The translations under genes and the position numbers were made by a program. This document shows positions 21,913 through 40,062 of a stretch of 40,062 bases of DNA, one piece after another. Each line of letters starts with the position of its first letter. Positions within the stretch are counted from its first letter, which is position 1. Under the pieces are notes generated by a model. It saw only the letters and a list, made by a program, of their open reading frames with translations, was not told the DNA's origin and searched no databases. Source of the DNA: a virus (Duplodnaviria > Heunggongvirae > Uroviricota > Caudoviricetes); the IMG/VR virus record IMGVR_UViG_2671180458_000005; one strand, written 5' to 3'.

Positions 21913-21970
21913 AGCTATATCTCATAACCGCCGCTAACTATATGCGGTTAGCGGCGATCAGGGTTGAACA

Positions 21971-24696: not shown

Positions 24697-24881
24697 TGCT
24701 GCCCCCCGAAAATACCAAGTTTAAGAAGGGCAATTCTGGAGAGTATGGAATTATCATTGAGAAGATAAGGCTCATATTTTCTCATCTTAATGGCATCTTC
24801 AGTAAACTCCCGGTTACTGAGCAGAACACCAATATCAAAACACCCTTCAGACGTATTAACGTTTGGTAATAACGTTTCCAT
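24693..24881 (-). CDS. dicB: Cell division inhibitor DicB homologue
   Basis: 62 aa METLLPNVNTSEGCFDIGV...FTEDAI... closely resembles E. coli DicB N-terminus and length as recalled; dicF-like RNA upstream. Confidence 0.65.
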   Translation of the reverse strand: METLLPNVNTSEGCFDIGVLLSNREFTEDAIKMRKYEPYLLNDNSILSRIALLKLGIFGGQQ

Positions 24882-24891
24882 TATCGCGTCC

Positions 24892-25449: not shown

Positions 25450-25929
25450 GATGGCAGCCTCGATAGTCAGTTTAAATAACTCACCACCAAGGCTTTCCAC
25501 GACCATAAGGGTGGTGAGACGTACAGGGGTGGAAATACCGGTGACTACCGAAACCGGCCAGCCTTTCGGCTGCCCTGCACGCCCCACCATAATCTGAATG
25601 TGGCTGTGCATTACGCATAAAAAAACCGCCTGAGCGCGGTTATGCGCAGTAGTCATCATCGGGTTTCCACGCCCGGCACCCGCTTTATGAGGTGCAGGTG
25701 CACTATAATTCCACCCATTCTGGTTTTCAATAGCTACATTCAACATTTTCTCTTACCCTTCATCACCGAAGTGAACTTTGTTGATGCAGTGCCTGGTGCC
25801 TCCAGGTGACGTTAACCAGTTAACAATTAACGCCGGATTGTTAGTTGATGTCTGTTACGCCAGTAAAAGACCGCTTGTTTTAACTGTTCCGCGTGCGCTT
25901 AGCCGCATTCACCGCATCACAAAATTCAC

Positions 25930-25992
25930 TTTAAAAAGGGTGGCAGAGCAGTCACGGAGTAGAACTGATGCCACCAAAGACTACACATGGGT
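25930..25992 (-). ncRNA. dicF: DicF-like small RNA
   Basis: Minus strand reads ...UCAGUUCUACUCCGUGACUGCUCUGCCACCCUUUUU, near-identical to the 3-prime two-thirds of E. coli DicF as recalled, including terminator hairpin and U-run; downstream flank also matches; 5-prime end less conserved and not mapped. Confidence 0.65.
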
Positions 25993-26241
25993 ATTGTGGC
26001 GGGGCTGTCACTTAATCGTATGGTCAACCTGACAACCCGGTGCATTTTCTGGAGCAATGGAGGAAACCCCAGCCATACTTACCGCCGCGCCATTTCGCGG
26101 ATTGCCACAACCGGAAGCGCACGTTCGAAGAAATCTAACGACAAGCCTTCTAAGGGAAAGAGCTTCGCCGTGCGCTTTCGTGTTATACCCTGACTTTTCA
26201 GGGTAAATTAACCAGTGGCAACCTGTTTTTACTGGTGCTAA

Positions 26242-26394
26242 TCAGTTAGTGTTTCTGGCTAACCAGCGACGCGCGCCAGCTTCGGTTTTAAACTTTTTAC
26301 TTTTGGTATACGTCATCGCGGTAAACGTGCCGTCCTGGTTAGGGAACACACCGCATACCAGAGATTCGTTGTTGCCAAGATTGAGCGTATCCAT
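26242..26394 (-). CDS. Hypothetical small protein, first ORF downstream of the leftward promoter
   Basis: 50 aa MDTLNLGNNESLVCGVFPNQDGTFTAMTYTKSKKFKTEAGARRWLARNTN; not in ORF track; no family recognised. Confidence 0.4.
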   Translation of the reverse strand: MDTLNLGNNESLVCGVFPNQDGTFTAMTYTKSKKFKTEAGARRWLARNTN

Positions 26395-26577
26395 GTTGAC
26401 CTCATTTACCCTTAACGCCGGGTCGCGGAACTAAAAACCTGCTGCGCTGTTATACAAAGTGTTCCCGCCGTCATGTTCATACGCCTCGGGCTGGCTACTT
26501 AACCCCTTGCCACTGCCGGGTAACTCGAAGTATTGCCTGGCGTTCTGTGGGGCGGAGTGGGTTGGTGAGTGCAATCT

Positions 26578-26616
26578 ACAATTAAAAACTGTTTTGTGTC
26601 AACAGTTTTTAATTGT
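26578..26616. promoter_or_regulatory. Operator palindrome (OL-like) containing a leftward promoter
   Basis: ACAATTAAAAACTGTT-TTGTGTC-AACAGTTTTTAATTGT; on minus strand a perfect TTGACA -35 sits in the centre with TAGATT about 18 nt downstream; near-identical palindrome at 27612..27650. Confidence 0.65.
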
Positions 26617-26625
26617 GCATTTAAG

Positions 26626-26649
26626 CAAAAAAATCCCTCGAAAGAGGGA
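26626..26649 (-). terminator. Rho-independent terminator after parE-like gene (minus strand)
   Basis: Minus strand TCCCTC-TTTC-GAGGGA followed by TTTTTTT. Confidence 0.65.
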
Positions 26650-26667
26650 GTATGAAAATAGTTCAGC

Positions 26668-26955
26668 TCAGATAGAGAAGGGAAATTGTCGGCGAGCATG
26701 TGTCACGCTTACAATCTCAATGCTTGAAGCAGCTACTCTGTACAGGATTATGTAGTTAGGGTGGGTCACTATCTCTCTCAACCCAGAAACCCGTTCGCTT
26801 GGTGGATATAGGTACGGATGCTCAGATAGAGGTAATACCGATGTTTCAATACGTATTTTAAGTCTACGCGCTGCCGGTGGGTTCTCCTTGGCGATGTAAG
26901 TTATGATCTGACGCAAATCATCGCGAGCAGATGGTAGCCATAAAATGGGCAACAT
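26668..26955 (-). CDS. ParE/RelE-family type II toxin
   Basis: 95 aa; start codon overlaps antitoxin stop by 1 nt; sequence pattern typical of ParE toxins (recalled). Confidence 0.7.
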   Translation of the reverse strand: MLPILWLPSARDDLRQIITYIAKENPPAARRLKIRIETSVLPLSEHPYLYPPSERVSGLREIVTHPNYIILYRVAASSIEIVSVTHARRQFPFSI

Positions 26956-27146
26956 TACTCGCTCCTGTTAGTTACAGCAATTTGAGCAATAAGATTTTCC
27001 ATTTCAGCTATTACCTCGTCATGTGGAATTGCAGGGCGAGGGTCTGCAAGGCTTGACGCTACTTTAGCGCGCAACCATTCGTTGTAACTGTTTTCTTGTT
27101 CGATAGTTTCGAATTCTGAAACTATCGGAGAAAGGGCTGTACTCAT
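26955..27146 (-). CDS. Small antitoxin, PaaA2-like
   Basis: 63 aa MSTALSPIVSEFETIEQENSYNEWLRAKVASSLADPRPAIPHDEV...; size and sequence resemble PaaA2 of the E. coli O157 paaR2-paaA2-parE2 module as recalled; translationally coupled to toxin. Confidence 0.6.
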   Translation of the reverse strand: MSTALSPIVSEFETIEQENSYNEWLRAKVASSLADPRPAIPHDEVIAEMENLIAQIAVTNRSE

Positions 27147-27173
27147 GGCATAACTCCTCTTCTTGTACTGTGG

Positions 27174-27575
27174 TCACGCCCGGCGGCTTTTTTGTGCCGC
27201 CAGCCACCGGGCAATGGTTTCTTCCATTGATTTTTTTTTGTCTTTGATTTCTTGAAGCATTTTTTCTTGGTCCTCCTCAGGGAACGCACTAAAAGCCTGG
27301 AGTAATTCGCGTTGGCGAGGACCAATTTTCATCGTGTTAGGGGTGAACATTTGCTCCCCCTCTTCAGGAGGCAATAAAAACCAATGCAACGGATGCCCTG
27401 TAACCTCAACCAGTTTATCCAAACTTGAGGCTTTAGGTGTAGCCTTACCGCTGACCCATTGTTGAACAGTTTGTTGTGTCACACCAATTCTACGGGCCAG
27501 CTCAGCCTGGCTCCATCCAGTTTCCTGAAGAAGCTTGCTGATTCTGTACATCGATACTTCTAGGGCGCTCATCAT
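27174..27575 (-). CDS. XRE-family HTH repressor (prophage repressor / PaaR-like regulator)
   Basis: HTH segment WSQAELARRIGVTQQTVQQWVSGK; divergent from cro-like gene across an operator palindrome; no LexA-type autocleavage motifs seen; start (MMSALE or MYRIS) uncertain, no SD. Confidence 0.7.
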   Translation of the reverse strand: MMSALEVSMYRISKLLQETGWSQAELARRIGVTQQTVQQWVSGKATPKASSLDKLVEVTGHPLHWFLLPPEEGEQMFTPNTMKIGPRQRELLQAFSAFPEEDQEKMLQEIKDKKKSMEETIARWLAAQKSRRA

Positions 27576-27611
27576 TATTCAATTTTACAGGTAAATACTG
27601 TTAAAAGCATC

Positions 27612-27650
27612 ACAATAAAAAACTGTTGATCGCGTACAGTTTTTTATTGT
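27612..27650. promoter_or_regulatory. Operator palindrome (OR-like) between divergent repressor and cro-like genes
   Basis: ACAATAAAAAACTGT-TGATCGCGT-ACAGTTTTTTATTGT, perfect 15-bp inverted repeat arms. Confidence 0.7.
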
Positions 27651-27683
27651 AGCCTTTGCCTATAGTTTTTAGAGGAGGGCAAA

Positions 27684-27956
27684 ATGCTAGATAGCACTCG
27701 CAAAAAAATTAGGCAGAAATACACTCAGGCTGAAATAGGTCGTTATATGGGGGGCGCTCAACAGACAGTTTGGCAATGGTTTAGCTTTGGCGTTCCCCCA
27801 AAGCAGGTAATTCCGCTATGTCAGCTAATGAAGTGGGAGGTTACCCCGCATGAAATTCGCCCAGACATTTACCCTAATCCGACCGACGGCTTACCTGTCG
27901 AGTATCAGGCTAACACACAACCAGAGGCGGGGGTGATTCATGAAAATCAAGCATGA
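27684..27956 (+). CDS. Cro-like HTH protein, YdaS family
   Basis: 90 aa; GAGGAGGG RBS; HTH with QQTVWQWF; RPDI motif as in Rac YdaS (recalled). Confidence 0.6.
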   Translation: MLDSTRKKIRQKYTQAEIGRYMGGAQQTVWQWFSFGVPPKQVIPLCQLMKWEVTPHEIRPDIYPNPTDGLPVEYQANTQPEAGVIHENQA

Positions 27957-28365
27957 ACACATCCGCATGGCAATGAATGCCTGGGCGTATCCAGACGGTG
28001 AGAAAGTTCCAGCAGCTGAAATAGCCCGGACTTATTTCGAGCTGGGGATGACGTTCCCGGAACTGTACGACGACAGCCATCCGGAAGCCCTGGCTCGTAA
28101 TACCCAGAAAATTTTCCGCTGGGTGGAGAAGGACACGTCTGATGCTGTTGAAAAAATTCAGGCGCTGTTACCGGCGATCGAAAAGGCGATGCCGCCTTTG
28201 CTGGTGGCCCGTATGCGCAGTCACAGTTCTGAATATTACCGGGAGATCGTCGAACGACGGGATCGGCTGGTGAAAGATGTGGATGATTTTGTCGCTGTAG
28301 CGATCGCCTGGGGCACCCTGACTAACAGTGGTGGTCAGCCTGGTAATGCAGTTGTTGTGCATTGA
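27940..28365 (+). CDS. YdaT-family protein
   Basis: 141 aa beginning MKIKHEHI and ending ...VVVH, resembling Rac YdaT termini as recalled; overlaps ydaS-like gene. Confidence 0.6.
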   Translation: MKIKHEHIRMAMNAWAYPDGEKVPAAEIARTYFELGMTFPELYDDSHPEALARNTQKIFRWVEKDTSDAVEKIQALLPAIEKAMPPLLVARMRSHSSEYYREIVERRDRLVKDVDDFVAVAIAWGTLTNSGGQPGNAVVVH

Positions 28366-28433
28366 CCAACAATATTTATACCGGATTTCTTCCGGAAGTT
28401 CGTGGGTAAAGTTCGGTATCAGAAGAGGTGAGT

Positions 28434-29471
28434 ATGGCTAATGCCTGGCTCAGATTGTGGCATGACATGCCAAATGACCCCAAGTGGCGAACGATTGCCA
28501 GGGTATCAGGACAGCCAATCGCAACAGTGATGGCAGTGTATATCCATCTTCTGGTGAGCGCGTCACGAAATGTCACGACATGTCACGGCGTGTCACTACG
28601 TGGTCACATTGATGTCACGACGGAAGATTTAGCAAGTGCGCTTGATGTGACGGAAGACGTAATTGATTCAATTTTGCATGCAATGCAGGGGCGGGTTCTG
28701 GATGGTGACCTTATTTCCGGATGGGAAAAACGTCAGGTGCTGAAAGAGGACAATGGTAACGTTTCGCAAACGGCAAAATCCCCGGCAGAGCGCAAGAGAG
28801 CGCAGCGGGAGCGCGAAAAGCTGCGGAAATATGATGCTGATTGTCACGATGAGTCACGACGTGTCACGCATCTGTCACGACAAGTCACGACAGATAAAGA
28901 TACAGATACAGAATTAAACCCCACACATAACGCGCGCATGCGCGAGAGTGCTCCAACCGGTGAGTCGAATGGTGCGTCGTTGCAGACAGCCGAACCTGAA
29001 TTCCTGGACGGCCTGAGCGAACCGATCGGGAAATTTTCGATGACCACTGTCTGGCAGCCGTCGCCGGATTTTCGACAACGGGCAGCAGTGTGGGGTATGG
29101 CTCTGCCTGAGCCGGAATTTACACCTGCTGAGCTTGCCGCATTCCGGGATTACTGGATGGCGGAGGGGAAGGTTTTCACGCAGGTTCAGTGGGAGCAGAA
29201 ATTTGCCCGCCACGTGCAGCACGTCAGGGCACAGGTAAAACCAGTCAGCAAGGGGGTAAGCCATGCAGCATCAGGTGGCACGGCATCACGGGCAGTTCAG
29301 AAAATCCGGGCAGCACGAGAACAGTGGGAACGTGAAAACGGATTTATCAGCAACGGAAACGGCCTGGAAGCTGTGGGAACTTATGGGGGAGGTGTATTCG
29401 AACCGATGGACCCAGAAGAACGGGGCTGCGCCGTCGAAACTCTGGATTGCTCAGATTGGCGCGATGACTGA
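28434..29471 (+). CDS. Replication initiation protein (lambda O functional analogue, YdaU/DnaT-domain-like) containing origin iterons
   Basis: RBS GAGGTG then ATG 28434; two internal clusters of GTCAC(G) repeats at ~10-bp spacing; followed by P-like gene. Confidence 0.65.
   Translation: MANAWLRLWHDMPNDPKWRTIARVSGQPIATVMAVYIHLLVSASRNVTTCHGVSLRGHIDVTTEDLASALDVTEDVIDSILHAMQGRVLDGDLISGWEKRQVLKEDNGNVSQTAKSPAERKRAQREREKLRKYDADCHDESRRVTHLSRQVTTDKDTDTELNPTHNARMRESAPTGESNGASLQTAEPEFLDGLSEPIGKFSMTTVWQPSPDFRQRAAVWGMALPEPEFTPAELAAFRDYWMAEGKVFTQVQWEQKFARHVQHVRAQVKPVSKGVSHAASGGTASRAVQKIRAAREQWERENGFISNGNGLEAVGTYGGGVFEPMDPEERGCAVETLDCSDWRDD
28562..28889 (+). repeat. Putative replication origin: 11 GTCAC(G) iterons in two clusters (28562..28619 and 28843..28889)
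   Basis: Six repeats at spacing 10,10,10,11,11 and five at 10,10,11,10, helically phased, inside the O-like ORF. Confidence 0.65.
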
Positions 29472-29925
29472 ACAGCAAATCCGGCAGGTCTGCCGTCAGT
29501 GCATGGACCGCTGCCGGGCGGGTGAAACGTGGCCCCCGGACCTGGCTGAGTTTGTTGCGCTGATTTCGGAGAGTGAGGCAAATCCATTTGGTCTTACGGT
29601 GGATGCCGTGATGGAAGAGTACCGGCGCTGGCGCAATGAATCCTGGCGATACGACGGGAGTGATAAATACCCGTGGCCACAGCCTGTGCTGTACCACATC
29701 TGCCTCGAAATGCGTACCAGAGGGATTGAGCGCCAGATGACGCAGGGTGAGTTAAAACGACTTGCGGAACGGCAACTGACGAAATGGGCAAAGCATGTTG
29801 GTAACGGGATGAGTATTCCGCCGATCCGGAGGCAACTCGCATCGCCGAAGCGCCCGCAAGGGCCAACGCCAATTGAATTACTGAAACAGGAATACGAGCG
29901 CCGGAAGGCGGCTGGTTTTGTTTGA
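29263..29925 (+). CDS. Replication protein P-like (helicase loader)
   Basis: C-terminal two-thirds align by eye with lambda P (recalled). Overlaps O-like ORF by about 200 nt in another frame, so the start is uncertain. Confidence 0.6.
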   Translation: MQHQVARHHGQFRKSGQHENSGNVKTDLSATETAWKLWELMGEVYSNRWTQKNGAAPSKLWIAQIGAMTEQQIRQVCRQCMDRCRAGETWPPDLAEFVALISESEANPFGLTVDAVMEEYRRWRNESWRYDGSDKYPWPQPVLYHICLEMRTRGIERQMTQGELKRLAERQLTKWAKHVGNGMSIPPIRRQLASPKRPQGPTPIELLKQEYERRKAAGFV

Positions 29926-29958
29926 ATTTGAGAAATGATTTTGTCGGAGGACGTTTTA

Positions 29959-30633
29959 ATGGAAACCGTTTTTGACGCACTGCAAGCAATGGGAAAAGCC
30001 ACATCCATAGAACTTGCTGCGCGACTTGGTATCAGTCGTGAAGAAGTGCTGAACGAGTTGTGGGAACTGAAAAGAAATGGCGTCGTTGATAAAACGGGTC
30101 ACACCTGGTTTCTGGCTGGTAAAGGTGAATCCGGGGTAACCGAAGAGCAGCCAGCACAATCTGAAGTACCGGATGTGCTGACCGGGGAGGTCGAACAAAA
30201 AGTTACCGCGGACATGATGATTGAGTTTATCTGTCAGGATGGGGCTAAAACGTGTGAGGAACTGGCGGATAAGTTCGGTGTTAGCATTCGCAAGGTTGCT
30301 TCCACGTTGGCGGTCGTAACAGCAACGGGGCGCCTGGCACGCGTAAATCAGAACGGTAAATTTCGTTACTGCATACCGGGCGCTGATTTACCGGCAGAGC
30401 CGGAAGCTGCATCCGTAGCGGAAACCGATGGTAAAGCCTTTCCTCAGCCAGCAGGTGTTGCGTTACCAGTTCGGGAAGCGGAAACACAGGAAGAAATAAA
30501 AACGGAAAGTGTGGCGGTCACAGTGCAGTCACAGCCGTCGTTCACCAGAAAGCATCCGGATGGTCTGATTTTACCATCGCTGCATGTGGCTAACCGCGAG
30601 CTGCGCCGGGCAAAAGGTCAGGTTCAGAAGTGA
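29959..30633 (+). CDS. Hypothetical protein with winged-helix-like segments (DUF1627-like)
   Basis: Start ATG 29959 behind GGAGG; family assignment from memory only. Confidence 0.45.
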
Positions 30634-31034
30634 GAGCGAGTCTGCGCCGCGCTACGGGAGCTGAACAAGTGCCGGGATATTCTCCGGGATATTACCGCCA
30701 CCAGAGAACAGCAGCGGTGAGTGGCTGGAAGACGTGGTGCCGGGCTGAAATCCTGATACTCCGCCAGTGTGTGGGAACTATGAAGGTGAAAAGCATTGGC
30801 GCACTTATCGGACGAACTGAAGCGGCAGTGAGAACGAAGGCACTGGAGCTGGGCATCAGTATGATGTTACGTGGTGATTTTCACCCGTCGGCAAAATATT
30901 CACAGCGTGATATTGAGCTGGCGCGGCAACTGCATCAGCGCGGTGTACCCCGACGGGAAATTGCCGAAAAGTTCGGAATGAAGTTGCGTGCAGTGAATAA
31001 CTACGTTTATTTCGACAGGAGGATTCAGGCGTGA
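30630..31034 (+). CDS. Hypothetical protein with C-terminal HTH-like segment
   Basis: GTG start overlapping previous stop; alternative start ATG 30780; C-terminal [18 protein letters not shown] looks HTH-like. Confidence 0.4.
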
Positions 31035-31336
31035 GGGTGAGAATTTATATCGCCGGTCCGATGACGGGATATGAAAATTTCAACCGCGAGGCGTTTCACA
31101 GGGCGGAAGAAGCGCTGAAACGGGAAGGGCATACCGTTTTAAACCCGGCAGTACTTCCGGACGGGCTGACTCAGCCACATTACATGGATATTTGCATGGC
31201 AATGATTCGTTGTGTGGATGCAATTTACATGCTGAAAGGCTGGCAGCGGTCGGCAGGCGCTAAGGCAGAACTGGCACTGGCAGAGAAACTGGGACATGCG
31301 GTGATTTTCCAGGAGGCAACCAGTGAGCGAAATTAA
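31031..31336 (+). CDS. Nucleoside 2-deoxyribosyltransferase-like protein (DUF4406-like)
   Basis: 101 aa; GTG start behind AGGAGG; N-terminal RIYIAGPMTG...F motif characteristic of the deoxyribosyltransferase-like fold. Confidence 0.6.
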   Translation: MRVRIYIAGPMTGYENFNREAFHRAEEALKREGHTVLNPAVLPDGLTQPHYMDICMAMIRCVDAIYMLKGWQRSAGAKAELALAEKLGHAVIFQEATSERN

Positions 31337-31483
31337 TTACCAGGAACTACGGCAGGTGAAAGAGAAAGCATAATCCAGAACTGAATAATTAAAATCAGCA
31401 CTGTAAATAAAATTTAATCCTTAACCGGAGGGATTTCTGCACCCTCAGAACATCAGGAGACCGCCCGGCAGGGCGGTAGTGAA

Positions 31484-31666
31484 ATGCGAAAGTTCAAAAT
31501 AATTATTGAAACGGGAATAGCCGGTGGAGATTTTGAGGATGTATTCGAAGTGGACGATGACGCAACACCTGATGAAATTCATGACGAAGCAAAAGAAATT
31601 TTCTTTAACTACTGCAATTACTCATATCACGAAATAAAAGACGAAGAGGAAGAACAAAATGGCTGA
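31484..31666 (+). CDS. Small highly acidic protein (hypothetical)
   Basis: 60 aa, about one third Asp/Glu; stop overlaps start of next small ORF (ATGGCTGA). Confidence 0.5.
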   Translation: MRKFKIIIETGIAGGDFEDVFEVDDDATPDEIHDEAKEIFFNYCNYSYHEIKDEEEEQNG

Positions 31667-31835
31667 TTTTGGTTCAACTAAATACAACGTCAGTTTTGAA
31701 GAATGGCATGAACTGTTAATGGACTATGCAGAGTTACGTGGTGGCAGTGCTGCTGATGCTGAAGCATGGCGTGATGATTATGAAGCAGGAAAAACTCCGG
31801 TCGAAGCATATTGTGATGAGTGGGGCGATGAATGA
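31659..31835 (+). CDS. Small acidic protein (hypothetical)
   Basis: 58 aa MADFGSTKYNVSFEEWHELLMDYAELRGGSAADAEAWRDDYEAGKTPVEAYCDEWGDE; overlaps both neighbours by 4-8 nt; not in ORF track. Confidence 0.5.
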   Translation: MADFGSTKYNVSFEEWHELLMDYAELRGGSAADAEAWRDDYEAGKTPVEAYCDEWGDE

Positions 31836-32347
31836 GCGAGATTAATTATCAGGAAGGGCATGAAACGGCAGGGCAGGCAAAACCAGTTGCATGGCGATAT
31901 CGCTACGTGAAAAAAGACGTTACAGACTTTCAGGGGAAGCCGTGGGCTGGTGACTGGAAATATGTACCGACAAAAGAGGATTGTAACGACAGGCCGAACT
32001 ATGAAATTCAGGCCTTATTCATCGGCCCGCCAGTCCCGGTGACATCAGAAGGACTGGTTAAAGCTGTGCGCTTTTATGAACAGGTAAAGCGTGAGAATCC
32101 GCCAGTCGAAACAGGAGCATGGAAGGATGCTGTTGACTGGGTGCTCAGAGAGGCCTGCTGTGCTGCCATTCTGGGTAAAGCCGACAATCCACCAGCATCC
32201 GGCAATCAGGTTAGCGAATTAGCAATGTGGGTTAAACGGCTGGTCAGCCAACTGAAAAAAGCGAAGCCGGACTGCAAATTACCGGATAAGGCGATGGACT
32301 ACCTGAAGCGAAACGGACTGATAAACGAGGAGGATATTTTACGATGA
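31832..32347 (+). CDS. Hypothetical protein
   Basis: 171 aa; ATGA overlap with upstream ORF; a truncated copy of its first codons lies at 31323..31372. Confidence 0.55.
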   Translation: MSEINYQEGHETAGQAKPVAWRYRYVKKDVTDFQGKPWAGDWKYVPTKEDCNDRPNYEIQALFIGPPVPVTSEGLVKAVRFYEQVKRENPPVETGAWKDAVDWVLREACCAAILGKADNPPASGNQVSELAMWVKRLVSQLKKAKPDCKLPDKAMDYLKRNGLINEEDILR

Positions 32348-32427
32348 CCTGGCCTGAAGCGTTCATAACGGTAGGAATTGCAATGGCGGTGGCGCTGGTG
32401 GTGTATTCGATTTGCCGCTGGGGATAA
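32344..32427 (+). CDS. Putative 27-aa hydrophobic membrane peptide
   Basis: MTWPEAFITVGIAMAVALVVYSICRWG; ATGA overlap with upstream gene; followed by hairpin. Confidence 0.3.
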   Translation: MTWPEAFITVGIAMAVALVVYSICRWG

Positions 32428-32439
32428 ATTGCCGAAAAA

Positions 32440-32476
32440 AGATCCCGCCACAAACATGAGCCGGGATCTTTGATTT
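32440..32476 (+). terminator. Possible intrinsic terminator
   Basis: AGATCCCG...CGGGATCT stem with 14-nt loop followed by T-rich tract. Confidence 0.4.
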
Positions 32477-32549
32477 ATATAGCCTACGAATCCGCAGTAA
32501 GAGAGGGGCAGACGGTTTATTCTAACACCGGAATGATGTGGGTAAAAGT

Positions 32550-32849
32550 TTATAAGAAATCGGTTTCATAACTTTGCCCACCATGATAGATACCGACAAT
32601 AAAGACTTTTCTGCCATCAACGGCAAAAGCAATAATCGTTCTGTGGCGGAAATGAGTTACCCGCATCCCCTGGCGAATATCATCGCGTTTATTGCCCCGA
32701 TGCGGGAATGTAGAAAACCCATCAAGATAATCAAGAAGCGCATTGGCATAATTGTCAGCAATGACGTTCCCTGCTTTCTCCGTTATATATCTGTGCAGGT
32801 TGATTATTTGTTGTTCGGCCTCAGGAGTAATGATGACTTCATATGTCAT
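32550..32849 (-). CDS. parE: ParE-family type II toxin
   Basis: 99 aa; immediately downstream of ParD-like gene on same strand. Confidence 0.7.
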   Translation of the reverse strand: MTYEVIITPEAEQQIINLHRYITEKAGNVIADNYANALLDYLDGFSTFPHRGNKRDDIRQGMRVTHFRHRTIIAFAVDGRKVFIVGIYHGGQSYETDFL

Positions 32850-32854
32850 GCAGA

Positions 32855-33112
32855 TTACTTCCCGGATCGAATCGCGGCGCGAACCTGTGAAATGGAGCGT
32901 CCGTTGTTTGGGTTTTCGCGGATAGAATCAAGAGAGGGGGCGGCTGAATGCGTTAACCACGCTTCGATTGCTTTATCGCGCTCATTCAGTGCGCGAAGCC
33001 CTTCACGAATGACCTCGCTTTCTGAAGCATAGGCACCGGAAGCCACACGGGCGCGCACCATGTCAGCCATCTCGTTAGTTAATGTAATGCTGAATTGTTG
33101 GGTTGTACGCAT
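32855..33112 (-). CDS. parD: ParD-family (RHH) antitoxin
   Basis: Start at ATG 33112 (MRTTQQFSITLTNEMADMVRARV...), GAGG upstream. Confidence 0.65.
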   Translation of the reverse strand: MRTTQQFSITLTNEMADMVRARVASGAYASESEVIREGLRALNERDKAIEAWLTHSAAPSLDSIRENPNNGRSISQVRAAIRSGK

Positions 33113-33247
33113 GGTAAACCTCACGGAGTAGGATAGAACACTATTCGATGATAGCACGCTGCCTGTTGACGACAACAGAAATCAGAGACAATATTGCCGC
33201 ACGCCAGCCTGAACAACTGGCACCTGCTGCGCCAGCAGAGACAACCG

Positions 33248-33526
33248 ATGGCGCAAGATACCAAATTACACAATTCGGATAACTCCGCCGCCCCTGCCAG
33301 CAGGCACGGGCGGCGTTCTCATGCATTCAAATCTGACTGGTTCCAGCATGACCCATGCACTGAAGAACAGGCCGAATGGCTGATCCAGTGCTACCGCAGA
33401 CGTGGTTACGAGTTTCAGAAAGATCTCAGCTTCGATCGTCGTCACTGGATAATCTCCGTCAGGCTCCCTTATTCCGAACGCCCACCGCGTCCGTCCCGCA
33501 CATTCCAGCAGCGTATCTGGAGGTAA
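33248..33526 (+). CDS. Hypothetical protein
   Basis: ORF ends 1 nt before the GTG start of the next gene; start uncertain (TTG 33194 or ATG 33248). Confidence 0.35.
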   Translation: MAQDTKLHNSDNSAAPASRHGRRSHAFKSDWFQHDPCTEEQAEWLIQCYRRRGYEFQKDLSFDRRHWIISVRLPYSERPPRPSRTFQQRIWR

Positions 33527-33527
33527 C

Positions 33528-34577
33528 GTGCGGGTATTACTTCGACCTGTTCTGGTACCGGAACTCGGGATGGTGCTCCTTAAGCCGGGCCGTGAATCAA
33601 TGTCAGCATTCCATAACGGCAGAATATTGGTGGAGCCGGAACCGAAAAACATGCGCGGTCTGCCGTCCGGAGTCGTTCCTGCCGTTCGCCAGCCGCTGGC
33701 AGAGGATAAAACATTACTGCCATTTTTCAGCGATGAGCGGGTTATTCGTGCAGCAGGTGGTGCAGGTGCACTGTCTGACTGGTTATTACGTCACGTGAAA
33801 TCCTGCCAGTGGCCACACGGCGATTATCATCACAGCGAAACCGTCATTCACCGTTACGGTACCGGCGCGATGGTGTTGTGCTGGCACTGTGACAACCAGC
33901 TGCGCGACCAGACATCAGAATCACTCGATCAACTTGCTCAGCAGAATCTGGCAGTCTGGATGATTGATGTTATACGTCACGCAATAAGCGGTACGCAGGA
34001 GAGGGAGTTATCGCTGGCCGAATTATCCTGGTGGGCGGCCTGCAATCAGGTGGTGGATGCACTACCTGAGGCAGTAGCGCGTCGTTCGCTGGGATTACCG
34101 GTGGAAAAAATCCGCTCCGTATACCGTGAGAGTGACATCGTACCGGGAGAACAGACAGCCATCAGCATACTGAAGCAGCGCACAAAAAATATTGCGCTGC
34201 CACTTCACGTCCACCAGCAACAAAATCCACCACAGAAAAAAACGGTTGTCAGTATCGCCGTTGATCCGGAGTCTCCTGAATCGTTTATGAAGCGGCCTAA
34301 ACATCGCCGTTGGGTTAATGAGAAATACACGCGCTGGGTAAAGACACAGCCGTGTGCGTGTTGTGGTAAGCCAGCTGACGATCCGCATCACCTGATTGGT
34401 CATGGTCAGGGGGGAATGGGAACAAAAGCCCACGATATTTTCACGCTACCGCTGTGTCGGGAGCATCATAACGAGCTTCATGCGGATCCGCTGGCGTTCG
34501 AAGAAAAGCATGGTTCTCAGGTTGATTTAATTTTTCGTTTTCTTGATCACGCCTTTGCAACCGGTGTGCTTGGGTAA
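33528..34577 (+). CDS. YdfU-like protein with C-terminal Cys/His HNH-like motif (DUF968-like)
   Basis: 349 aa; GTG start behind GGAGG; C-terminal CACCGKPADDPHHLIGHGQGG...LCREHHNELHADP. Confidence 0.55.
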   Translation: MRVLLRPVLVPELGMVLLKPGRESMSAFHNGRILVEPEPKNMRGLPSGVVPAVRQPLAEDKTLLPFFSDERVIRAAGGAGALSDWLLRHVKSCQWPHGDYHHSETVIHRYGTGAMVLCWHCDNQLRDQTSESLDQLAQQNLAVWMIDVIRHAISGTQERELSLAELSWWAACNQVVDALPEAVARRSLGLPVEKIRSVYRESDIVPGEQTAISILKQRTKNIALPLHVHQQQNPPQKKTVVSIAVDPESPESFMKRPKHRRWVNEKYTRWVKTQPCACCGKPADDPHHLIGHGQGGMGTKAHDIFTLPLCREHHNELHADPLAFEEKHGSQVDLIFRFLDHAFATGVLG

Positions 34578-34590
34578 AAGGGGGGTATTG

Positions 34591-34965
34591 ATGTGTATAG
34601 AGTTTGTTTTGCCTTACCCGCCGACGGTGAATACTTACTGGCGACGTCGTGGCAGCACATATTTTGTATCAAAAGCCGGGGAGCGTTATCGCCGGGCAGT
34701 GGCGTTTATTGTTCGCCAGCAGCGACTGAAATTAAGCCTGTCCGGACGGCTGGCAATAAAAATTATTGCAGAGCCACCGGATAAGCGTCGTCGTGACCTG
34801 GACAACATTCTGAAAGCACCGCTGGATGCGCTGACGCATGCGGGACTGCTTATCGACGATGAACAGTTTGATGAAATCAATATTGTACGTGGTCAGCCAG
34901 TATCTGGTGGACGTCTGGGGGTGAAGATTTACCCCATAATGCTTGAAGGGCAGGTCAAAAAATGA
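34591..34965 (+). CDS. rusA: Holliday junction resolvase RusA
   Basis: LPYPPTVNTYWRRRG and DKRRRDLDNILKAPLDALTHAGLLIDDEQ motifs; start ATG 34591 behind AAAAGGGGGG. Confidence 0.8.
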   Translation: MCIEFVLPYPPTVNTYWRRRGSTYFVSKAGERYRRAVAFIVRQQRLKLSLSGRLAIKIIAEPPDKRRRDLDNILKAPLDALTHAGLLIDDEQFDEINIVRGQPVSGGRLGVKIYPIMLEGQVKK

Positions 34966-35783
34966 AACTGGAAGATTTACCGAAATACTACTCCCCAAAA
35001 TCCCCCGGCCTGACTGATGCATCGGCCTCAACGTCAAAAGATGCGCTGAGTATCACTGATGTGATGGCCGCGCAGGGCATGACACAGAATCGGGCTGAGA
35101 TGGGGTTTTCTGCGTTCCTTGGGAAAATGGGCATTAGTATGAATGACAGAGAGCGGGCAACAGAATTGCTGACAGAATATGCACTCAGTCGGTGTGATCG
35201 CGTGGCGGCGTTAAGAAAACTCCCGGCAGAAATAAAACCGGCAGTGATGCGTATTATGGCTTCGTATGCGTTTGAAGATTATGCCCGTAGCGCGGCGAGC
35301 AAAAAACAGTGCCCCTGCTGTCACGGAAAAAAATTTATTGAAAGCGAGGTTTTTACAAACAAGATCCAGTATCCGGATGGTAAGCCGCCAGTGTGGGCAA
35401 AGTGCACAAAAGGCGTGTATCCGTCTTACTGGGAGGAATGGAAAAAAGTCAGGGAGGTGGTAAAAGTTGCCTGTCCGGAGTGTGGCGGAAAGGGGGAGGT
35501 TTCCACCGCCTGTAAAGATTGTCGTGGGCGCGGTGTTGCCATTCATCGTGAAGAGTCGGAAAAACAGGGTGTGCCGGTTTTCAGAAACTGCCAGCGTTGT
35601 GGTGGGCGTGGCTATGAAAGATTACCTTCAACGGAGGCATTTAATGCCATATGTAATGTAACCGATGCCATATCTCTTGATACATGGAAAAAAACAGTTA
35701 AACGTTTTTACGATACGCTGGTGGTGCAGTTTGATATTGAAGAAGCATGGGCAGAACAACAACTGAAAAAGGTGACCAGATAG
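34962..35783 (+). CDS. Late-gene antitermination protein Q (multi-zinc-finger type)
   Basis: 273 aa with several CxxC pairs; ATGA overlap with rusA; followed by late promoter-like region and terminator. Confidence 0.65.
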   Translation: MKLEDLPKYYSPKSPGLTDASASTSKDALSITDVMAAQGMTQNRAEMGFSAFLGKMGISMNDRERATELLTEYALSRCDRVAALRKLPAEIKPAVMRIMASYAFEDYARSAASKKQCPCCHGKKFIESEVFTNKIQYPDGKPPVWAKCTKGVYPSYWEEWKKVREVVKVACPECGGKGEVSTACKDCRGRGVAIHREESEKQGVPVFRNCQRCGGRGYERLPSTEAFNAICNVTDAISLDTWKKTVKRFYDTLVVQFDIEEAWAEQQLKKVTR

Positions 35784-35863
35784 CTTTGTTGATTTTTCCC
35801 GAATCTGTGGTAAATTTGCCCTAACGATGGGCGTTTTATGCCTGACGTTAGAAGATTTTTACA

Positions 35864-35886
35864 CCCGTCGCCAGGCGGGTTTTTTT
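35864..35886 (+). terminator. Rho-independent terminator downstream of Q (tR-prime analogue)
   Basis: CCCGTC-GCCA-GGCGGG followed by TTTTTTT about 80 nt after Q stop. Confidence 0.6.
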
Positions 35887-36008
35887 ATGACTGAAATCAC
35901 GCCAGTACAGTAAACGCGCTGGTGGCGGTGAATACCGGTCTTTCAGCTTGCTGGCTTTTTTGACAAGAGTTATTGGTGTGTCACGTTAACCGGAAAAGGG
36001 AAAAAGAC

Positions 36009-36206
36009 ATGCTGATACAGCAGGATATGACCGAAACCGCCAGAGTGGTGTTTAATGAATTAAGCGTCACCGAACCGGCGACAGTCGGGGAGATTGCGCA
36101 GAATACTTACCTTTCACGCGAACGCTGCCAGTTAATACTGACCCAGCTTGTTATGGCGGGTCTGGCAGACTATCAGTTCGGTTGTTACAGACGCCTTCAG
36201 TCATGA
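36009..36206 (+). CDS. Small winged-helix DNA-binding protein (hypothetical)
   Basis: 65 aa from ATG 36009; segment VGEIAQNTYLSRERCQLILTQLVMAGLADY looks wHTH-like. Confidence 0.4.
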   Translation: MLIQQDMTETARVVFNELSVTEPATVGEIAQNTYLSRERCQLILTQLVMAGLADYQFGCYRRLQS

Positions 36207-36356
36207 AGGCTTTTTTATTTGTGGTAAATGGGCGGCTGGTGGGTGTTAGGGGCACTCACCAGCCATCTGCTCATGCGTCTGGATCACAAGCAAACCTCAG
36301 GCCCACTGCTTTGCGCAAAAGCAGAATGAGCCTATCAGAGACAGGCTTAATGATCC

Positions 36357-37415
36357 ATGCTTAACACTGTAAAAATATCCAGTTGTGAGTTAATCAACGC
36401 CGACTGCCTGGAATTTATCCGGTCGTTACCCGAAAATTCTGTTGACCTGATAGTCACGGATCCGCCGTACTTTAAAGTGAAGCCTGAGGGCTGGGATAAC
36501 CAGTGGAAGGGCGACGATGATTACCTGAAGTGGCTGGACCAGTGTCTGGCGCAGTTCTGGCGGGTGCTGAAACCTGCCGGAAGTCTTTACCTGTTCTGTG
36601 GCCATCGCCTGGCATCTGATATCGAAATCATGATGCGTGAACGCTTCAGTGTGCTGAACCATATTATCTGGGCAAAGCCGTCCGGACGCTGGAACGGGTG
36701 CAACAAGGAAAGCCTGAGGGCGTATTTCCCCGCCACAGAGCGCATTCTGTTCGCGGAACATTATCAGGGGCCGTATCGTCCGAAAGATGCCGGGTATGAG
36801 GCGAAGGGCAGGGCACTGAAACAGCATGTGATGGCTCCGCTGATTGCTTACTTTCGTGATGCGCGTGCTGCCCTGGGGATAACGGCAAAACAGATAGTGG
36901 ATGCCACAGGAAAGAAAAACATGGTGTCGCACTGGTTCAGTGCCAGTCAGTGGCAACTGCCGAACGAAAGTGATTATCTGAAATTACAGGCGCTGTTTGC
37001 CCGGGTGGCAGAAGAGAAGCATCAGCGGGGTGAACTGGAGAAGCCCCACCACCAGCTGCTGGAGACGTATACTTCACTGAACCGGCAGTATGCGGAACTG
37101 CAGAGTGAATATAAGCATCTGCGGCGGTATTTTGGCGTGACGGCGCAGGTGCCGTACACCGATGTGTGGACGCATAAACCGGTGCAGTACTATCCCGGGA
37201 AACATCCGTGCGAAAAACCGGCAGAAATGCTGCAGCAGATAATCAGCGCGAGCAGTCGTCCGGGGGACCTGGTTGCAGATTTTTTCATGGGGTCGGGTTC
37301 GACAGTCAAAGCCGCGATGGCACTGGGGCGTCGTGCAACTGGTGTTGAGCTGGAGACTGAACGTTTTGAGCAGACGGTCAGGGAAGTTCAGGATTTAGCC
37401 AGTCAGAACGGATGA
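36357..37415 (+). CDS. DNA methyltransferase (N6-adenine/N4-cytosine type, no cognate endonuclease seen)
   Basis: 352 aa; motif IV LIVTDPPY near N-terminus and motif I FMGSGST near C-terminus. Confidence 0.85.
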   Translation: MLNTVKISSCELINADCLEFIRSLPENSVDLIVTDPPYFKVKPEGWDNQWKGDDDYLKWLDQCLAQFWRVLKPAGSLYLFCGHRLASDIEIMMRERFSVLNHIIWAKPSGRWNGCNKESLRAYFPATERILFAEHYQGPYRPKDAGYEAKGRALKQHVMAPLIAYFRDARAALGITAKQIVDATGKKNMVSHWFSASQWQLPNESDYLKLQALFARVAEEKHQRGELEKPHHQLLETYTSLNRQYAELQSEYKHLRRYFGVTAQVPYTDVWTHKPVQYYPGKHPCEKPAEMLQQIISASSRPGDLVADFFMGSGSTVKAAMALGRRATGVELETERFEQTVREVQDLASQNG

Positions 37416-37455
37416 TATTGCAGGATTAGTTACGTACCGTTATTATCCTGCACTC

Positions 37456-37531
37456 GGCCCTTTAGCTCAGTGGTGAGAGCGAGCGACTCATAATCGCCAG
37501 GTCGCTGGTTCAAATCCAGCAAGGGCCACCA
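37456..37531 (+). tRNA. tRNA with CAU anticodon (Ile2-lysidine type or Met), ileZ-like
   Basis: 76 nt; acceptor GGCCCTT/AAGGGCC; anticodon loop CTCATAA; T-loop GGTTCAAATCC; ends CCA. Confidence 0.8.
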
Positions 37532-37540
37532 TATCACATA

Positions 37541-37617
37541 CCGCCATTAGCTCATCGGGATAGAGCGTCAGCCTTCGAAGCTGGTTGCGCGGGGTTCGAG
37601 TCCTCGATGGCGGTCCA
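37541..37617 (+). tRNA. tRNA-Arg (anticodon UCG), argN-like
   Basis: 77 nt; acceptor CCGCCAT/ATGGCGG; anticodon loop CTTCGAA; GGTTCGAGTCC T-arm; ends CCA. Confidence 0.7.
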
Positions 37618-37630
37618 TTATCGGTATTCA

Positions 37631-37707
37631 GCGTTGTTAGCTCAGCCGGACAGAGCAATTGCCTTCTAAGCAATCGGTCACTGGTTCGAATCCAGTACAA
37701 CGCGCCA
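37631..37707 (+). tRNA. tRNA-Arg (anticodon UCU), argO-like
   Basis: 77 nt; acceptor GCGTTGT/ACAACGC; anticodon loop CTTCTAA; GGTTCGAATCC T-arm; ends CCA. Confidence 0.8.
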
Positions 37708-37721
37708 TATTTATTTACCAG

Positions 37722-37746
37722 GCTCGCTTTTGCGGGCCTTTTTTGT
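37722..37746 (+). terminator. Possible terminator after tRNA cluster
   Basis: GGCTCGC-TTTT-GCGGGCC imperfect hairpin followed by TTTTTT. Confidence 0.45.
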
Positions 37747-37876
37747 ATCCGCGCCACGCCCGGCGCATATCAACCACAGAGCCTTTCGGGGGTGAGCTTA
37801 CGGAGTGGTCAGTGTGACTTTCTCTGTGGGCAGATCGCTCCCGGGCGTTGGCTCACCCACCTAAAGGAACGTCACG

Positions 37877-38308
37877 ATGTTTGGTATTTTCAAAAAGAAA
37901 ACCCGCAGAGCAGCAGCGGAAATTAAAAAGTTTGAGAAACGTGATCTGGCACAGGCGGTTATTAATGCTGCCTACCTGGTAGCCTATGCAGATGGTGAAT
38001 GTGAGGCTTCAGAGAAAGCGAAGATCGAGCAGGTCTTGCGTAACCAGCCAGCGTTGTCCGCGTTTACGTCAGAAATTAATGCTATCAGTGCCACGATCAC
38101 AGGTCAGCTTGACACCAACTTTAAAATTGGTCGTCGAGCGGCGTTGCGTGAAATTGAAGATGTGAAACACGATACGCGTGAAGCGGAAGATGTGCTGGAT
38201 GTGGCGGTGGCCATTGCTGAAGCAGATGGTGAAATTGAGCCGGAAGAGCGTAAGGTTCTGGAAGAGATTGCTGGTGTTCTTGGCCTGCGACTGGAGAACC
38301 ACCTGTGA
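37877..38308 (+). CDS. TerB-like domain protein
   Basis: 143 aa; two AxADGE motifs (AYADGECEASEKAKI and AEADGEIEPEERKVLEEI) typical of TerB fold; AAAGGA RBS. Confidence 0.6.
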   Translation: MFGIFKKKTRRAAAEIKKFEKRDLAQAVINAAYLVAYADGECEASEKAKIEQVLRNQPALSAFTSEINAISATITGQLDTNFKIGRRAALREIEDVKHDTREAEDVLDVAVAIAEADGEIEPEERKVLEEIAGVLGLRLENHL

Positions 38309-38469
38309 CGGTAAAACTGCGTCTGGCCGCTGTGGCACTCCTGCTGTTTCTGGTGGTGATGGTGGATTTCACCAGCAGGATCATGTCGGTGCTGGCGGAT
38401 GGAGTGCTGGTGGTCGGTATTGTGGTGGTGCTTTTTCCTTTGGTGAAAAAGGACATGCCAGGTAGTTAG
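38305..38469 (+). CDS. Small hydrophobic membrane protein, translationally coupled to TerB-like gene
   Basis: 54 aa VTVKLRLAAVALLLFLVVMVDFTSRIMSVLADGVLVVGIVVVLFPLVKKDMPGS; GTGA overlap; not in ORF track. Confidence 0.45.
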   Translation: MTVKLRLAAVALLLFLVVMVDFTSRIMSVLADGVLVVGIVVVLFPLVKKDMPGS

Positions 38470-38717
38470 CCGGGTATCAGTCATGCCCCGAAAATTTTAA
38501 ATGTCTCACAATTCAGACGGTTGACAGTTGTCTGTTTTGCGGGGAGTTTGTTAAAAGAAACAGGCATGGTGAATCCCCCTGAGCGGAGGGGCGACTGGTG
38601 CATTAGGTGTTATCTTTGATACCCAGGAAAGTAAACGCGCGGGTTTGGTGGCACCGGGCTGAACTCACCGGGAGGCACCCGGCATCATGCGCATGATGAT
38701 ACAGATACGCGGCTTTA

Positions 38718-38741
38718 GCCCCTCTCCGGAGGGGCTTTTAT
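38718..38741 (+). terminator. Rho-independent terminator
   Basis: GCCCCTC-TCCG-GAGGGGC followed by TTTTATAT. Confidence 0.6.
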
Positions 38742-38770
38742 ATGAATTTTGTAAGATATGAGTAAACTAA

Positions 38771-39106
38771 TTATGGACACTGTTGTTTTAGTCCGTAAGG
38801 GCATATTTGCAGAATGCAATGATTATTAAAGCATTCTTTCAATACGTTATCTGAATTTGCAGGACATTCCTGGCTGTTTTTGATTAAATCCCAGAATCTT
38901 TTATTGAATGGTACAACGTTGTAAATGGTTACAGGTAGCACTTTGTTATTAAGTACGATACCTGTGTGAGTCAACGTAAATATACTTTCAGGAGGTAAGA
39001 AAACATCCGATTGATACCAGATTATTAATTTTATTTTACTCCATATGGCTGAAAAAGATATTCCGCATGATGGCTGGATAACTGTATCAATCACAATCCA
39101 CTTCAT
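38771..39106 (-). CDS. Hypothetical Cys-containing protein in low-GC island
   Basis: 111 aa; strong SD TAAGGAGG 7 nt upstream on minus strand; AT-rich surroundings. Confidence 0.55.
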
Positions 39107-39367
39107 TTAGCCTCCTTATTTATGCTGTGCTGGTGATGTTCTGAAAAGTATAAATGATAATTTTGAATGTAAACCATAGAGCAGAATTATTTTTCTGATG
39201 TTGTTTATTGTTTATTTAAATACAGGTTTTTATATCCCGTCTTGTAGTTTATCCATGCATACCTGCTTTATGATGAGGTTTTCATTTAAGGTATGGTTTT
39301 GTGTTTTTTTTTTCTGTATTTCATGTCAGGTATTTTAAAGAATTGTTTTTAATATGGTGGAAAGAAC

Positions 39368-40062
39368 CATGGCATTTAAACACTATGACGTGGTCAGGGC
39401 GGCGTCGCCGTCAGACCTTGCGGAGCGACTGACTCAAAAACTGAAGGAGGGGTGGCAGCCATTTGGCAGCCCTGTCGCCATCACGCCTTATACCCTGATG
39501 CAGGCCATTGCGGCGGAAGGTGATGTCACCACACCTGTGGTGGTGAAGCCGTCGGATGGAGAAGGCACAGTAATCAGCGCCACCAGTGACCCGGAGTATT
39601 ACTTTGTTGTGGTTCTGGCAGGGCAGTCAAACGGCATGTCGTATGGTGAAGGCCTTCCGCTGCCGGAGACATATGACCGTCCGGACCCGCGTATTAAGCA
39701 GCTGGCGCGCCGCAGTACGGTGACACCGGGCGGTGCCGCCTGTAAGTATAACGACATTATTCCGGCGGACCATTGTCTGCATGATGTGCAGGACATGAGC
39801 CGTCTTAACCATCCGAAAGCGGACCTGTCAAAGGGGCAGTACGGAACCGTGGGGCAGGGGCTGCATATCGCCAAAAAACTGCTGCCGTTTATACCGGCGA
39901 ATGCGGGTATTTTGCTGGTTCCGTGCTGCCGTGGTGCTTCGGCATTCACAACGGGTGCAGACGGCACATACAGCGAATCAGCCGGTGCATCGGAAAATTC
40001 ACTGCGCTGGGGTGTGGGTAAGCCGCTGTATCAGAATTTGGTGAGCCGGACTAAAGCCGCAC
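39368..40062 (+). CDS. NanS-p-like sialate O-acetylesterase (DUF1737 N-terminus), 5-prime part; continues beyond window
   Basis: N-terminus MAFKHYDVVRAASPSDLAERLTQKLKEGWQPFGSPV and following SGNH-like region (VVLAGQSNG) resemble Stx-phage nanS-p genes as recalled; no stop before window end. Confidence 0.65.

Follow-up and report, generated by a model that had tools for sequence, protein, structure and literature searches.

The DNA analysed here, called the window throughout, is a stretch of 40,062 nucleotides from a virus of the Caudoviricetes (IMG/VR record IMGVR_UViG_2671180458_000005). Across these 40 kb, ARAGORN called exactly three tRNA genes, all on the plus strand:

37456..37531, plus strand: tRNA gene with anticodon CAU, probably tRNA-Ile2, ileZ type (ARAGORN; Rfam 72.5 bits)
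37541..37617, plus strand: tRNA-Arg gene with anticodon UCG, argN type (ARAGORN; Rfam 53.6 bits)
37631..37707, plus strand: tRNA-Arg gene with anticodon UCU, argO type (ARAGORN; Rfam 70.1 bits)

All three scored above the gathering score of 29 bits with the Rfam tRNA model (RF00005; E-values of 4e-14 to 6e-9), and explicit stem parsing revealed a complete cloverleaf and an encoded CCA end in each of them. The sole non-standard pair among the three cloverleafs, A27xC43 in the CAU tRNA, is also present in the ileZ gene of 933W-type phages. Minimum-free-energy folding of the single sequences returned no cloverleaf for any of the three tRNAs, the normal outcome for tRNA sequences without modifications; structure was judged instead by the covariance model and by explicit stem parsing. 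An earlier, sequence-only reading of this DNA had placed three tRNA genes (CAU, Arg-UCG and Arg-UCU) at 37456-37707; ARAGORN and Rfam both call all three, and the coordinates and anticodons proved to be exact.

That reading had also recognized in the order and anticodons of these genes the ileZ-argN-argO cluster of Stx phages, and the alignments bore this out. The three genes are identical to the annotated ileZ, argN and argO genes of Stx2a_F422 (AP012531, 933W species) at 76/76, 74/77 and 76/77 positions, respectively; their order, strand and spacing are the same as in the annotated clusters, and the trio as a whole is 96.4% identical to the 933W fragment Y10775 over 281 bp. With regard to the CAU gene, the sequence evidence favours tRNA-Ile2 over tRNA-Met on three grounds. 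First, it matches E. coli K-12 ileX at 68/76 positions, as against 54/77 for the elongator genes metT/metU and still fewer for the initiator gene metZ. Second, it retains C4-G69, C5-G68, U12-A23, C29-G41 and A73, reportedly established as TilS and IleRS determinants in work by Ikeuchi in 2005 and by Nureki in 1994, and the acceptor and anticodon-stem pairs among them are kept between K-12 ileX and the phage gene. Third, in a 100% identical genome copy, the NCBI PGAP annotation labels this gene tRNA-Ile. The correct label for the first gene would accordingly be tRNA-Ile2, although anticodon-only tools and several GenBank records give tRNA-Met. The 'Met' that ARAGORN printed for this gene is merely a literal reading of its anticodon.

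The argN-type gene differs from the F422 argN by three substitutions, namely U20a in the D-loop, a C27 to U27 change that keeps the pairing as G-U, and U44 in the variable loop. Its cloverleaf is intact and has A20, C35 and, as discriminator, U73. The K-12 tRNA-Arg genes examined have A73 or G73 at that position; a UCG anticodon has no counterpart among those K-12 genes (anticodons ACG, CCG, UCU and CCU). The argO-type gene differs from the F422 argO at a single position, with A37 here and G37 in F422. It matches K-12 argU at only 56/77 positions, yet the two genes have the anticodon loop CUUCUAA in common, just as the ileZ-type gene and host ileX both have CUCAUAA. The ileZ and argO types thus have their anticodons and anticodon loops in common with the host ileX/ileY and argU genes.

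This identity bears on counter-defence. Phage tRNAs and tRNA-targeting defences are a theme of the general literature, and the trio might make up for host tRNAs lost to cleavage or depletion in the course of infection or induction; anticodon nucleases and the tRNA-Arg-cutting colicin D are examples of agents with such effects. It would fit such a role that two of the three genes encode tRNA-Arg and that the relative PPyecE_EH1910, described below, carries a toxin-antitoxin pair at the tRNA position. However, a nuclease that recognizes the host loops should cut the phage copies as well, and no known nuclease partner was identified within the window. Because the loops equal those of the host, the idea is left without support, and we regard it as very improbable.

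The trio lies in a region with the following features:

34962..35783, plus strand: gene for late-gene antiterminator Q, 273 aa (PF03589 Antiterm, E = 5e-52; phrog_127, 'anti-termination protein Q-like')
35789..35831, plus strand: lambda-type late promoter pR' (TTGATT, 16-nt spacer, TAAATT, then the AACGATGGG pause element)
35863..35887, plus strand: candidate tR', intrinsic terminator of the short pR' transcript (7-pair stem, TTTTTTT; aligns with the T-run of lambda tR')
36009..36206, plus strand: small ORF, 65 aa and 'hypothetical protein' in RefSeq (phrog_331)
36193-36217, plus strand: terminator-like hairpin at the end of the small ORF (terminator scan)
36357..37415, plus strand: N6/N4 DNA methyltransferase gene, 352 aa (PF01555, E = 6e-44; PHROG DNA methyltransferase families)
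37418..37446, plus strand: weak candidate sigma-70 promoter for the tRNAs (TTGCAG, 17-nt spacer, TATTAT; read from the sequence)
37720..37745, plus strand: intrinsic terminator that closes the tRNA module and forms the left border of the cargo slot (8-pair stem with 6 GC, TTTTTT; -16.3 kcal/mol)

The Q gene is preceded on the same strand by a DUF968 gene and then rusA, and its RefSeq annotation in the 99.8% identical sister genome reads 'antitermination protein'. In an alignment with the Q end and pR' of lambda, the segment from GGTAAATTTG to AACGATGGG is conserved with unchanged spacing, the pR' core matches base for base, and AACGATGGG starts six bases past the TAAATT of pR'. We take AACGAT to be the sigma-70 pause signal of lambda pR'. 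A PF03589-type Q, a pR' with a pause element and a terminator at 35863-35880 follow one another here, which are the hallmarks of a Q-dependent late operon with predicted antitermination. The first tRNA gene starts 1672 nt 3' of the end of Q, with the small ORF and the methyltransferase gene in between, so that the earlier description of the trio as 'downstream of Q' is right for the transcription unit and wrong if adjacency was meant.

The TTGCAG-17-TATTAT candidate promoter matches the consensus at only 3/6 bases of the -35 hexamer and overlaps a hairpin at 37419-37452 (z-score -3.2); Stx2_EH1910 and the 933W-type phage have it unchanged. A consensus promoter scan reported no sigma-70 site upstream of the trio. 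A 'pS tRNA promoter' within the q-stx2 interval is mentioned in PMC2858043. Stx2_EH1910, the 933W-type phage and PPyecE_EH1910 all retain the terminator at 37720-37745; beyond this terminator in the window lie the cargo slot and its downstream neighbours:

37756..38501, plus strand: cargo cassette in the position of stx2AB (homology breakpoints versus Stx2_EH1910)
37877-38308, plus strand: TerB/TciA-family gene (PF05099 TerB; PHROG match)
38305-38469, plus strand: gene for a DUF3927/TciB-like membrane peptide, overlapping terB (PF13064 DUF3927; PHROG match)
38535..38747, plus strand: STnc100-family sRNA gene with its own terminator (Rfam RF02076, 139.4 bits, full length)
38771..39106, minus strand: iraM-like anti-adapter gene (NCBIfam NF007393, 161 bits versus a cut-off of 121)
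39369..40062, plus strand: 5' part of a nanS-p-type sialate O-acetylesterase gene that leaves the window (DUF1737 and SASA; PF08410, E = 3e-16)

The overall order is therefore Q, pR'/tR', small ORF, methyltransferase, tRNAs with terminator, cargo slot, STnc100, iraM (minus strand) and nanS-p. The PHROG families of the terB/DUF3927 pair are phrog_632 and phrog_1470, and the z-score of the long hairpin in the terB leader is only -2.1. The STnc100 gene lies in shared sequence that starts at the right border of the slot, 38502, and a sequence about 74% identical to it follows stx2B in Stx2_EH1910 and Stx2a_F422. The region around the iraM-like gene (38748-39368) is AT-rich, at 31.6% GC. A permissive Rfam search of 35700-39400 yielded extra matches at chance level only. 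In the sister prophage of strain FHI_NMBU_10 (99.7% identical), the esterase gene, which the sister genome annotates as 'SASA family carbohydrate esterase', is followed by holin, lysozyme, terminase and structural genes. The position of the trio, in the late region after Q and pR' and before a cargo slot, nanS-p and the lysis genes, matches that of ileZ-argN-argO clusters.

The sequence-only reading had further held that no stx genes follow the trio, and this was upheld: tblastn searches with Stx2A and Stx2B gave chance-level matches only in the window (best E = 0.046 over 25 aa) and nothing in the rest of the sister prophage, and the slot is occupied by terB/DUF3927. A Stx-converting phage carries both stxA and stxB, and the window carries neither; the prophage is to be classed with the Stx-phage-like lambdoid group, as a member that lacks stx.

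We then compared the locus with related phages. The Stx2a phage Stx2_EH1910 (LC567834) has the 273-aa Q, the small ORF, the methyltransferase, the trio and the terminator in common with the window and is 97.7% identical to it over 34900-37755. Immediately beyond, stx2A and stx2B (locus 5359-6682, 1324 bp) replace window positions 37756-38501 (746 bp); homology returns at 38502, at about 72-74% identity, and iraM and nanS-p come after the slot, as in the window. The exchange of stx2AB and terB/DUF3927 is thus a clean cassette swap, and the suggestion of an stx-negative relative or a phage with swapped cargo, for which an alignment to Stx-phage late regions had been proposed, now has breakpoints at base resolution (37755/38502). 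The 933W-type phages (Stx2a_F422, AP012531; 933W, Y10775) agree with the window in the anticodons, order, strand and spacers of the trio and in the terminator after argO, and their next conserved downstream blocks are likewise STnc100-like sequence and nanS-p. Unlike the window, they carry a different, shorter Q (144 aa) that ends 441 nt upstream of the trio, and stx2AB fills their slot; their homology to the window begins at 37305, so that a relic of the methyltransferase gene, its final ~110 bp, persists. PPyecE_EH1910 (LC567835), a non-Stx lambdoid prophage, shows the converse arrangement: a cassette of a TciA/TerB-like gene and a small membrane ORF, 94% identical over 37720-38432, lies downstream of the same methyltransferase as in the window, whereas Q is different and the trio (window 37385-37719) is replaced by a two-gene insert annotated as 'plasmid stabilization protein' and 'transcriptional regulator'. 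The replacements in Stx2_EH1910 and PPyecE_EH1910 indicate that the trio and the stx/terB unit behave as exchangeable modules with conserved sequence at their borders.

A search for a duplicated tRNA end around the cargo found none, and this favours homologous over site-specific exchange. The same result speaks against regarding the tRNA genes as remnants of attachment sites rather than as phage genes, an idea suggested by the many integrases that target tRNA genes and by a 2026 preprint that reads tRNA matches near neighbouring sRNA genes in this way. In addition, the three genes are full length, no integrase lies nearby, their late-operon position is constant in phage genomes including the 933W type, and the real attachment site is a 3' fragment of tRNA-Ser at 20570-20630, adjoining int. 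We rejected this reading on these grounds; its probability is negligible.

To place the locus among known genomes, we searched with the 281-bp trio as query, requiring at least 80% of it to be covered. The trio was found in 2579/5426 complete E. coli genomes, with as many as 13 places in a single genome, and also in 283 phage records. The junction of argO with terB occurs in 787 complete E. coli genomes, O157:H7 included, and that of argO with stx2A in 599. In IMG/VR, 81 contigs with the 3' end of argO and at least 1.5 kb downstream were found among the 120 matches listed, and their slots were occupied as follows, in proportions that are indicative only, short contigs limiting them:

No cargo ORF before iraM or nanS-p: 29/81 contigs among the matches listed
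TerB-type gene in the slot: 17/81 contigs among the matches listed, 7 of them arranged as in the window
stx2AB in the slot: 12/81 contigs among the matches listed
Other inserts in the slot: 12/81 contigs among the matches listed
No probe match within 1.5-3 kb: 11/81 contigs among the matches listed, several of which lead straight to lysis genes

The junction counts and the slot census make a trio without stx the usual state and no oddity. The trio belongs to the textbook equipment of Stx-type lambdoid prophages, and the stx-negative configuration seen here is very common.

Another explanation for the trio is that it persists mainly as a stretch of conserved sequence which, with the STnc100-type gene, frames the slot and promotes cassette exchange by homology, with tRNA function secondary or lost. 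The breakpoints fall exactly at module edges (37384/37720 versus PPyecE_EH1910 and 37755/38502 versus Stx2 phages), the slot is highly polymorphic across the 81 IMG/VR contigs among the matches listed, the 110-bp methyltransferase relic stands upstream of ileZ in 933W-type phages, and argN is decayed or lost in several lineages, phiP27, CD306 and 19451123 among them. However, ileZ and argO are nearly invariant, with intact cloverleafs, even between lineages that have only 87-93% identity in their flanks, and argN and the spacers diverge where the neighbouring ileZ and argO stay invariant. The near-invariance of these two genes argues for selection on tRNA function, and the loss of argN in several lineages marks it as dispensable; judged from these patterns, only ileZ and argO appear to be under steady selection. 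We therefore consider a purely positional role rather unlikely, and the breakpoints suggest that an anchoring role would be additional to tRNA function and no replacement for it, the two not being mutually exclusive.

A reading that combines both roles takes the trio with its terminator and the STnc100-type sRNA gene as fixed 'bookends' around a slot for homologous recombination whose contents alternate across E. coli prophages between stx2AB, TerB/TciB-type pairs, small ORF pairs and nothing. We put this forward tentatively, as having a low but real chance of being correct. If true, ileZ and argO would be retained for two reasons, their tRNA products and their use as recombination anchors, and one double crossover between prophages that reside in the same cell and share the bookends could suffice to gain or lose stx2. 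Since both flanks of the stx2 slot are in common with Stx2a phages, the left one at 97.7% identity, the prophage is in any event a plausible recombination partner for toxin gain or loss; this is relevant in strains with several such prophages and is nothing new in kind.

Codon usage was compared with a baseline of 42 K-12 core genes, and the rates per 1000 codons were as follows:

K-12 core sample: ATA 2.4, AGA 1.2, AGG 0.7, CGA 2.6, CGG 3.5
Early, nin, Q and methyltransferase genes of the window prophage: ATA 11.4, AGA 8.3, AGG 4.4, CGA 6.1, CGG 12.2
Head and tail genes of the sister prophage: ATA 6.7, AGA 3.0, AGG 3.5, CGA 4.3, CGG 17.5
stx2AB: ATA 36.8, AGA 14.7, AGG 4.9, CGA 4.9, CGG 7.4

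Most comparisons of phage with core codons were significant (Fisher p 1e-6 to 1e-23), and ATA makes up 68% of the Ile codons in stx2AB. The size of the enrichment hinges on the baseline, since a chromosomal flank in the sister genome (cobU to shiA) already reaches 20.4 per 1000 for ATA+AGA+AGG+CGA, versus 17.6 in the phage head and tail genes. Within the window, the iraM-like gene has 6 ATA and 1 AGA in 111 codons (54 ATA per 1000), and the YadA-C-like gene at 17906-19177 is another AT-rich cargo gene with heavy ATA and AGR use. The terB and DUF3927 genes, in a cassette of 51.6% GC, contain 0 ATA, 1 AGA, 1 AGG and 2 CGA in 197 codons, and with so few of these codons the slot cargo is not what the trio is matched to. 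The earlier suggestion that the Arg tRNAs may aid expression of AT-rich morons, to be checked by the codon usage of low-GC morons, needs qualifying: the AT-rich iraM-like gene is a heavy user, but the slot cargo hardly uses these codons, and the phage backbone genes are enriched as well.

The codon-supply proposal for the trio, a long-standing one that these codon rates fit, is said to have originated with Plunkett and colleagues in 1999. That phage tRNAs in general compensate for differences in codon usage is summarised in PMC7946995, and PMC4631060 reports that lambdoid phages with these tRNAs are neither better nor worse codon-adapted than relatives without them. Our literature searches on the gene names of the trio and on functional work returned nothing useful.

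We consider it highly probable that the locus is the ileZ-argN-argO module of an stx-less, lambda-like (Stx-phage-type) prophage of E. coli and that it supplies rare-codon decoding, most likely for AUA, AGA/AGG and CGA/CGG. The trio belongs to the late transcription unit and lies roughly 1.6 kb past pR' and the terminator behind it, so Q-modified RNA polymerase would be expected to read through the tRNA genes upon induction, and host RNase P and 3' nucleases would mature the tRNAs. The CAU tRNA-Ile2 would presumably be converted to the lysidine form by host TilS and then read AUA, whereas tRNA-Arg(UCG) would read CGA/CGG and tRNA-Arg(UCU) would read AGA/AGG, if aminoacylated. The module would thereby raise the capacity to decode codons that E. 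coli core genes seldom use and phage genes use in excess, and cargo may be served too, namely stx2AB in relatives and the iraM-like gene here. The swappable slot comes right after the terminator of the trio and holds the terB/DUF3927 (TciA/TciB-like) pair here instead of stx2AB.

The weak candidate promoter and the downstream terminator could also allow low expression in the lysogen, and this leads to an alternative based on lysogenic conversion, in which the tRNAs are constitutive in the lysogen and mainly help the host to translate acquired AT-rich genes elsewhere, such as effectors, adhesins and other prophage cargo, rather than phage late genes. A terminator and a conserved candidate promoter belong to the module itself, and PMC2858043 mentions the pS promoter; trio-matching places number up to 13 per genome; and the iraM-like and YadA-C-like genes are heavy in ATA and AGR. 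On the other hand, the candidate promoter is weak by consensus, and the fixed place in a Q-dependent late operon fits a role at the time of induction at least equally well. A benefit to the lysogenic host is compatible with the data and not exclusive of codon supply to the phage; as the main role we judge it possible, but not the probable one. As a second possibility besides the bookend arrangement, and one put forward just as tentatively, argN (UCG) may specifically serve the structural genes, in which CGG is in roughly 5-fold excess.

Within the tRNA trio of the late region (ileZ, argN and argO), a comparison that included loci L015-L018, which carry the trio, revealed that the middle gene, argN (UCG; window 37541-37617), is the unstable member. 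The argN copies of phiP27, CD306 and 19451123 have a scrambled anticodon arm, and that of ETEC H10407 has a mismatched acceptor stem. Across these loci, ileZ and argO are nearly invariant. In the non-Stx lambdoid relative PPyecE_EH1910, a two-gene insert occupies the exact position of the window's trio. In 933W-type Stx2 phages, the final ~110 bp of a DNA methyltransferase gene persist upstream of ileZ, as observed when positions 3366-3516 of L004 (Stx2a_F422, a phage of this type) were compared with window 37305-37455. This relic suggests that the compact arrangement of the 933W-type phages, in which Q is followed by the tRNAs, was probably derived from an arrangement with the methyltransferase gene between Q and the tRNAs, as in the window.

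In the cargo slot after argO, the leader of terB (37756-37876) can form a long imperfect hairpin with arms near 37790-37802 and 37846-37858. Its fold reaches -56 kcal/mol with a z-score of -2.1, and the leader is conserved in PPyecE_EH1910; a search of the leader against Rfam gave no match. Other occupants follow argO in further IMG/VR loci (L054, L055, L090, L092 and L121, and L100 and L120), among them two small ORFs (74 and 69 aa) that form a pair inserted 5' of terB, and a 117-aa ORF preceding iraM.

Beyond the slot lies a further RNA gene:

38535-38747: full-length STnc100-family sRNA gene (139 bits), between the cargo slot and iraM/nanS-p

In Stx2 phages, a sequence ~74% identical to this gene lies directly 3' of stx2B. 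A 2026 preprint related STnc100 to PasD and read adjacent tRNA hits as integration sites. The tRNAs near STnc100 in the window are genes of the phage late region and not att sites.

Window 35789-35887 holds a pR' of lambda type, in which the AACGATGGG pause element is conserved, and a terminator ~40 nt beyond it. Judged from the sequence, the leader RNA running from this promoter to the terminator would be far shorter than the 6S RNA of lambda. Stx2 phages have a short pR' transcript, StxS, which the predicted leader of the window resembles.

Prophage end sequences meet inside the window:

1-20646 (first half): lambdoid prophage right end, with tape measure, J and tail fibre
17906-19177: YadA-C-like cargo gene, within the right end
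20570-20630: tRNA-Ser gene, 3' ~60 nt only, adjoining int
20684-21709, minus strand: int

Window 8752-20646 shows ~98% identity to the right end of the FHI_NMBU_10 sister prophage, and window 20570-40062 shows 99.7-99.98% identity to the left end of the same prophage. The tRNA-Ser fragment at 20570-20630, next to int, marks an attP-like junction, and thus the window covers either the junction between two prophages in tandem or a phage genome in circularly permuted form.

The early-left region carries an RNA cluster for immunity and cell-division inhibition (25507-25989), each member of which scored above the Rfam gathering score, with small ORFs beside it:

24508-24881: dicB-like small ORFs
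25507-25594, minus strand: C4 antisense RNA
25619-25695, minus strand: isrK
25938-25989, minus strand: DicF

According to the annotation of the sister genome, strain FHI_NMBU_10, two RelE/ParE-type toxin-antitoxin pairs are located within the early and nin regions of the prophage:

26668-27146, minus strand: RelE/ParE-type pair
32550-33175, minus strand: RelE/ParE-type pair
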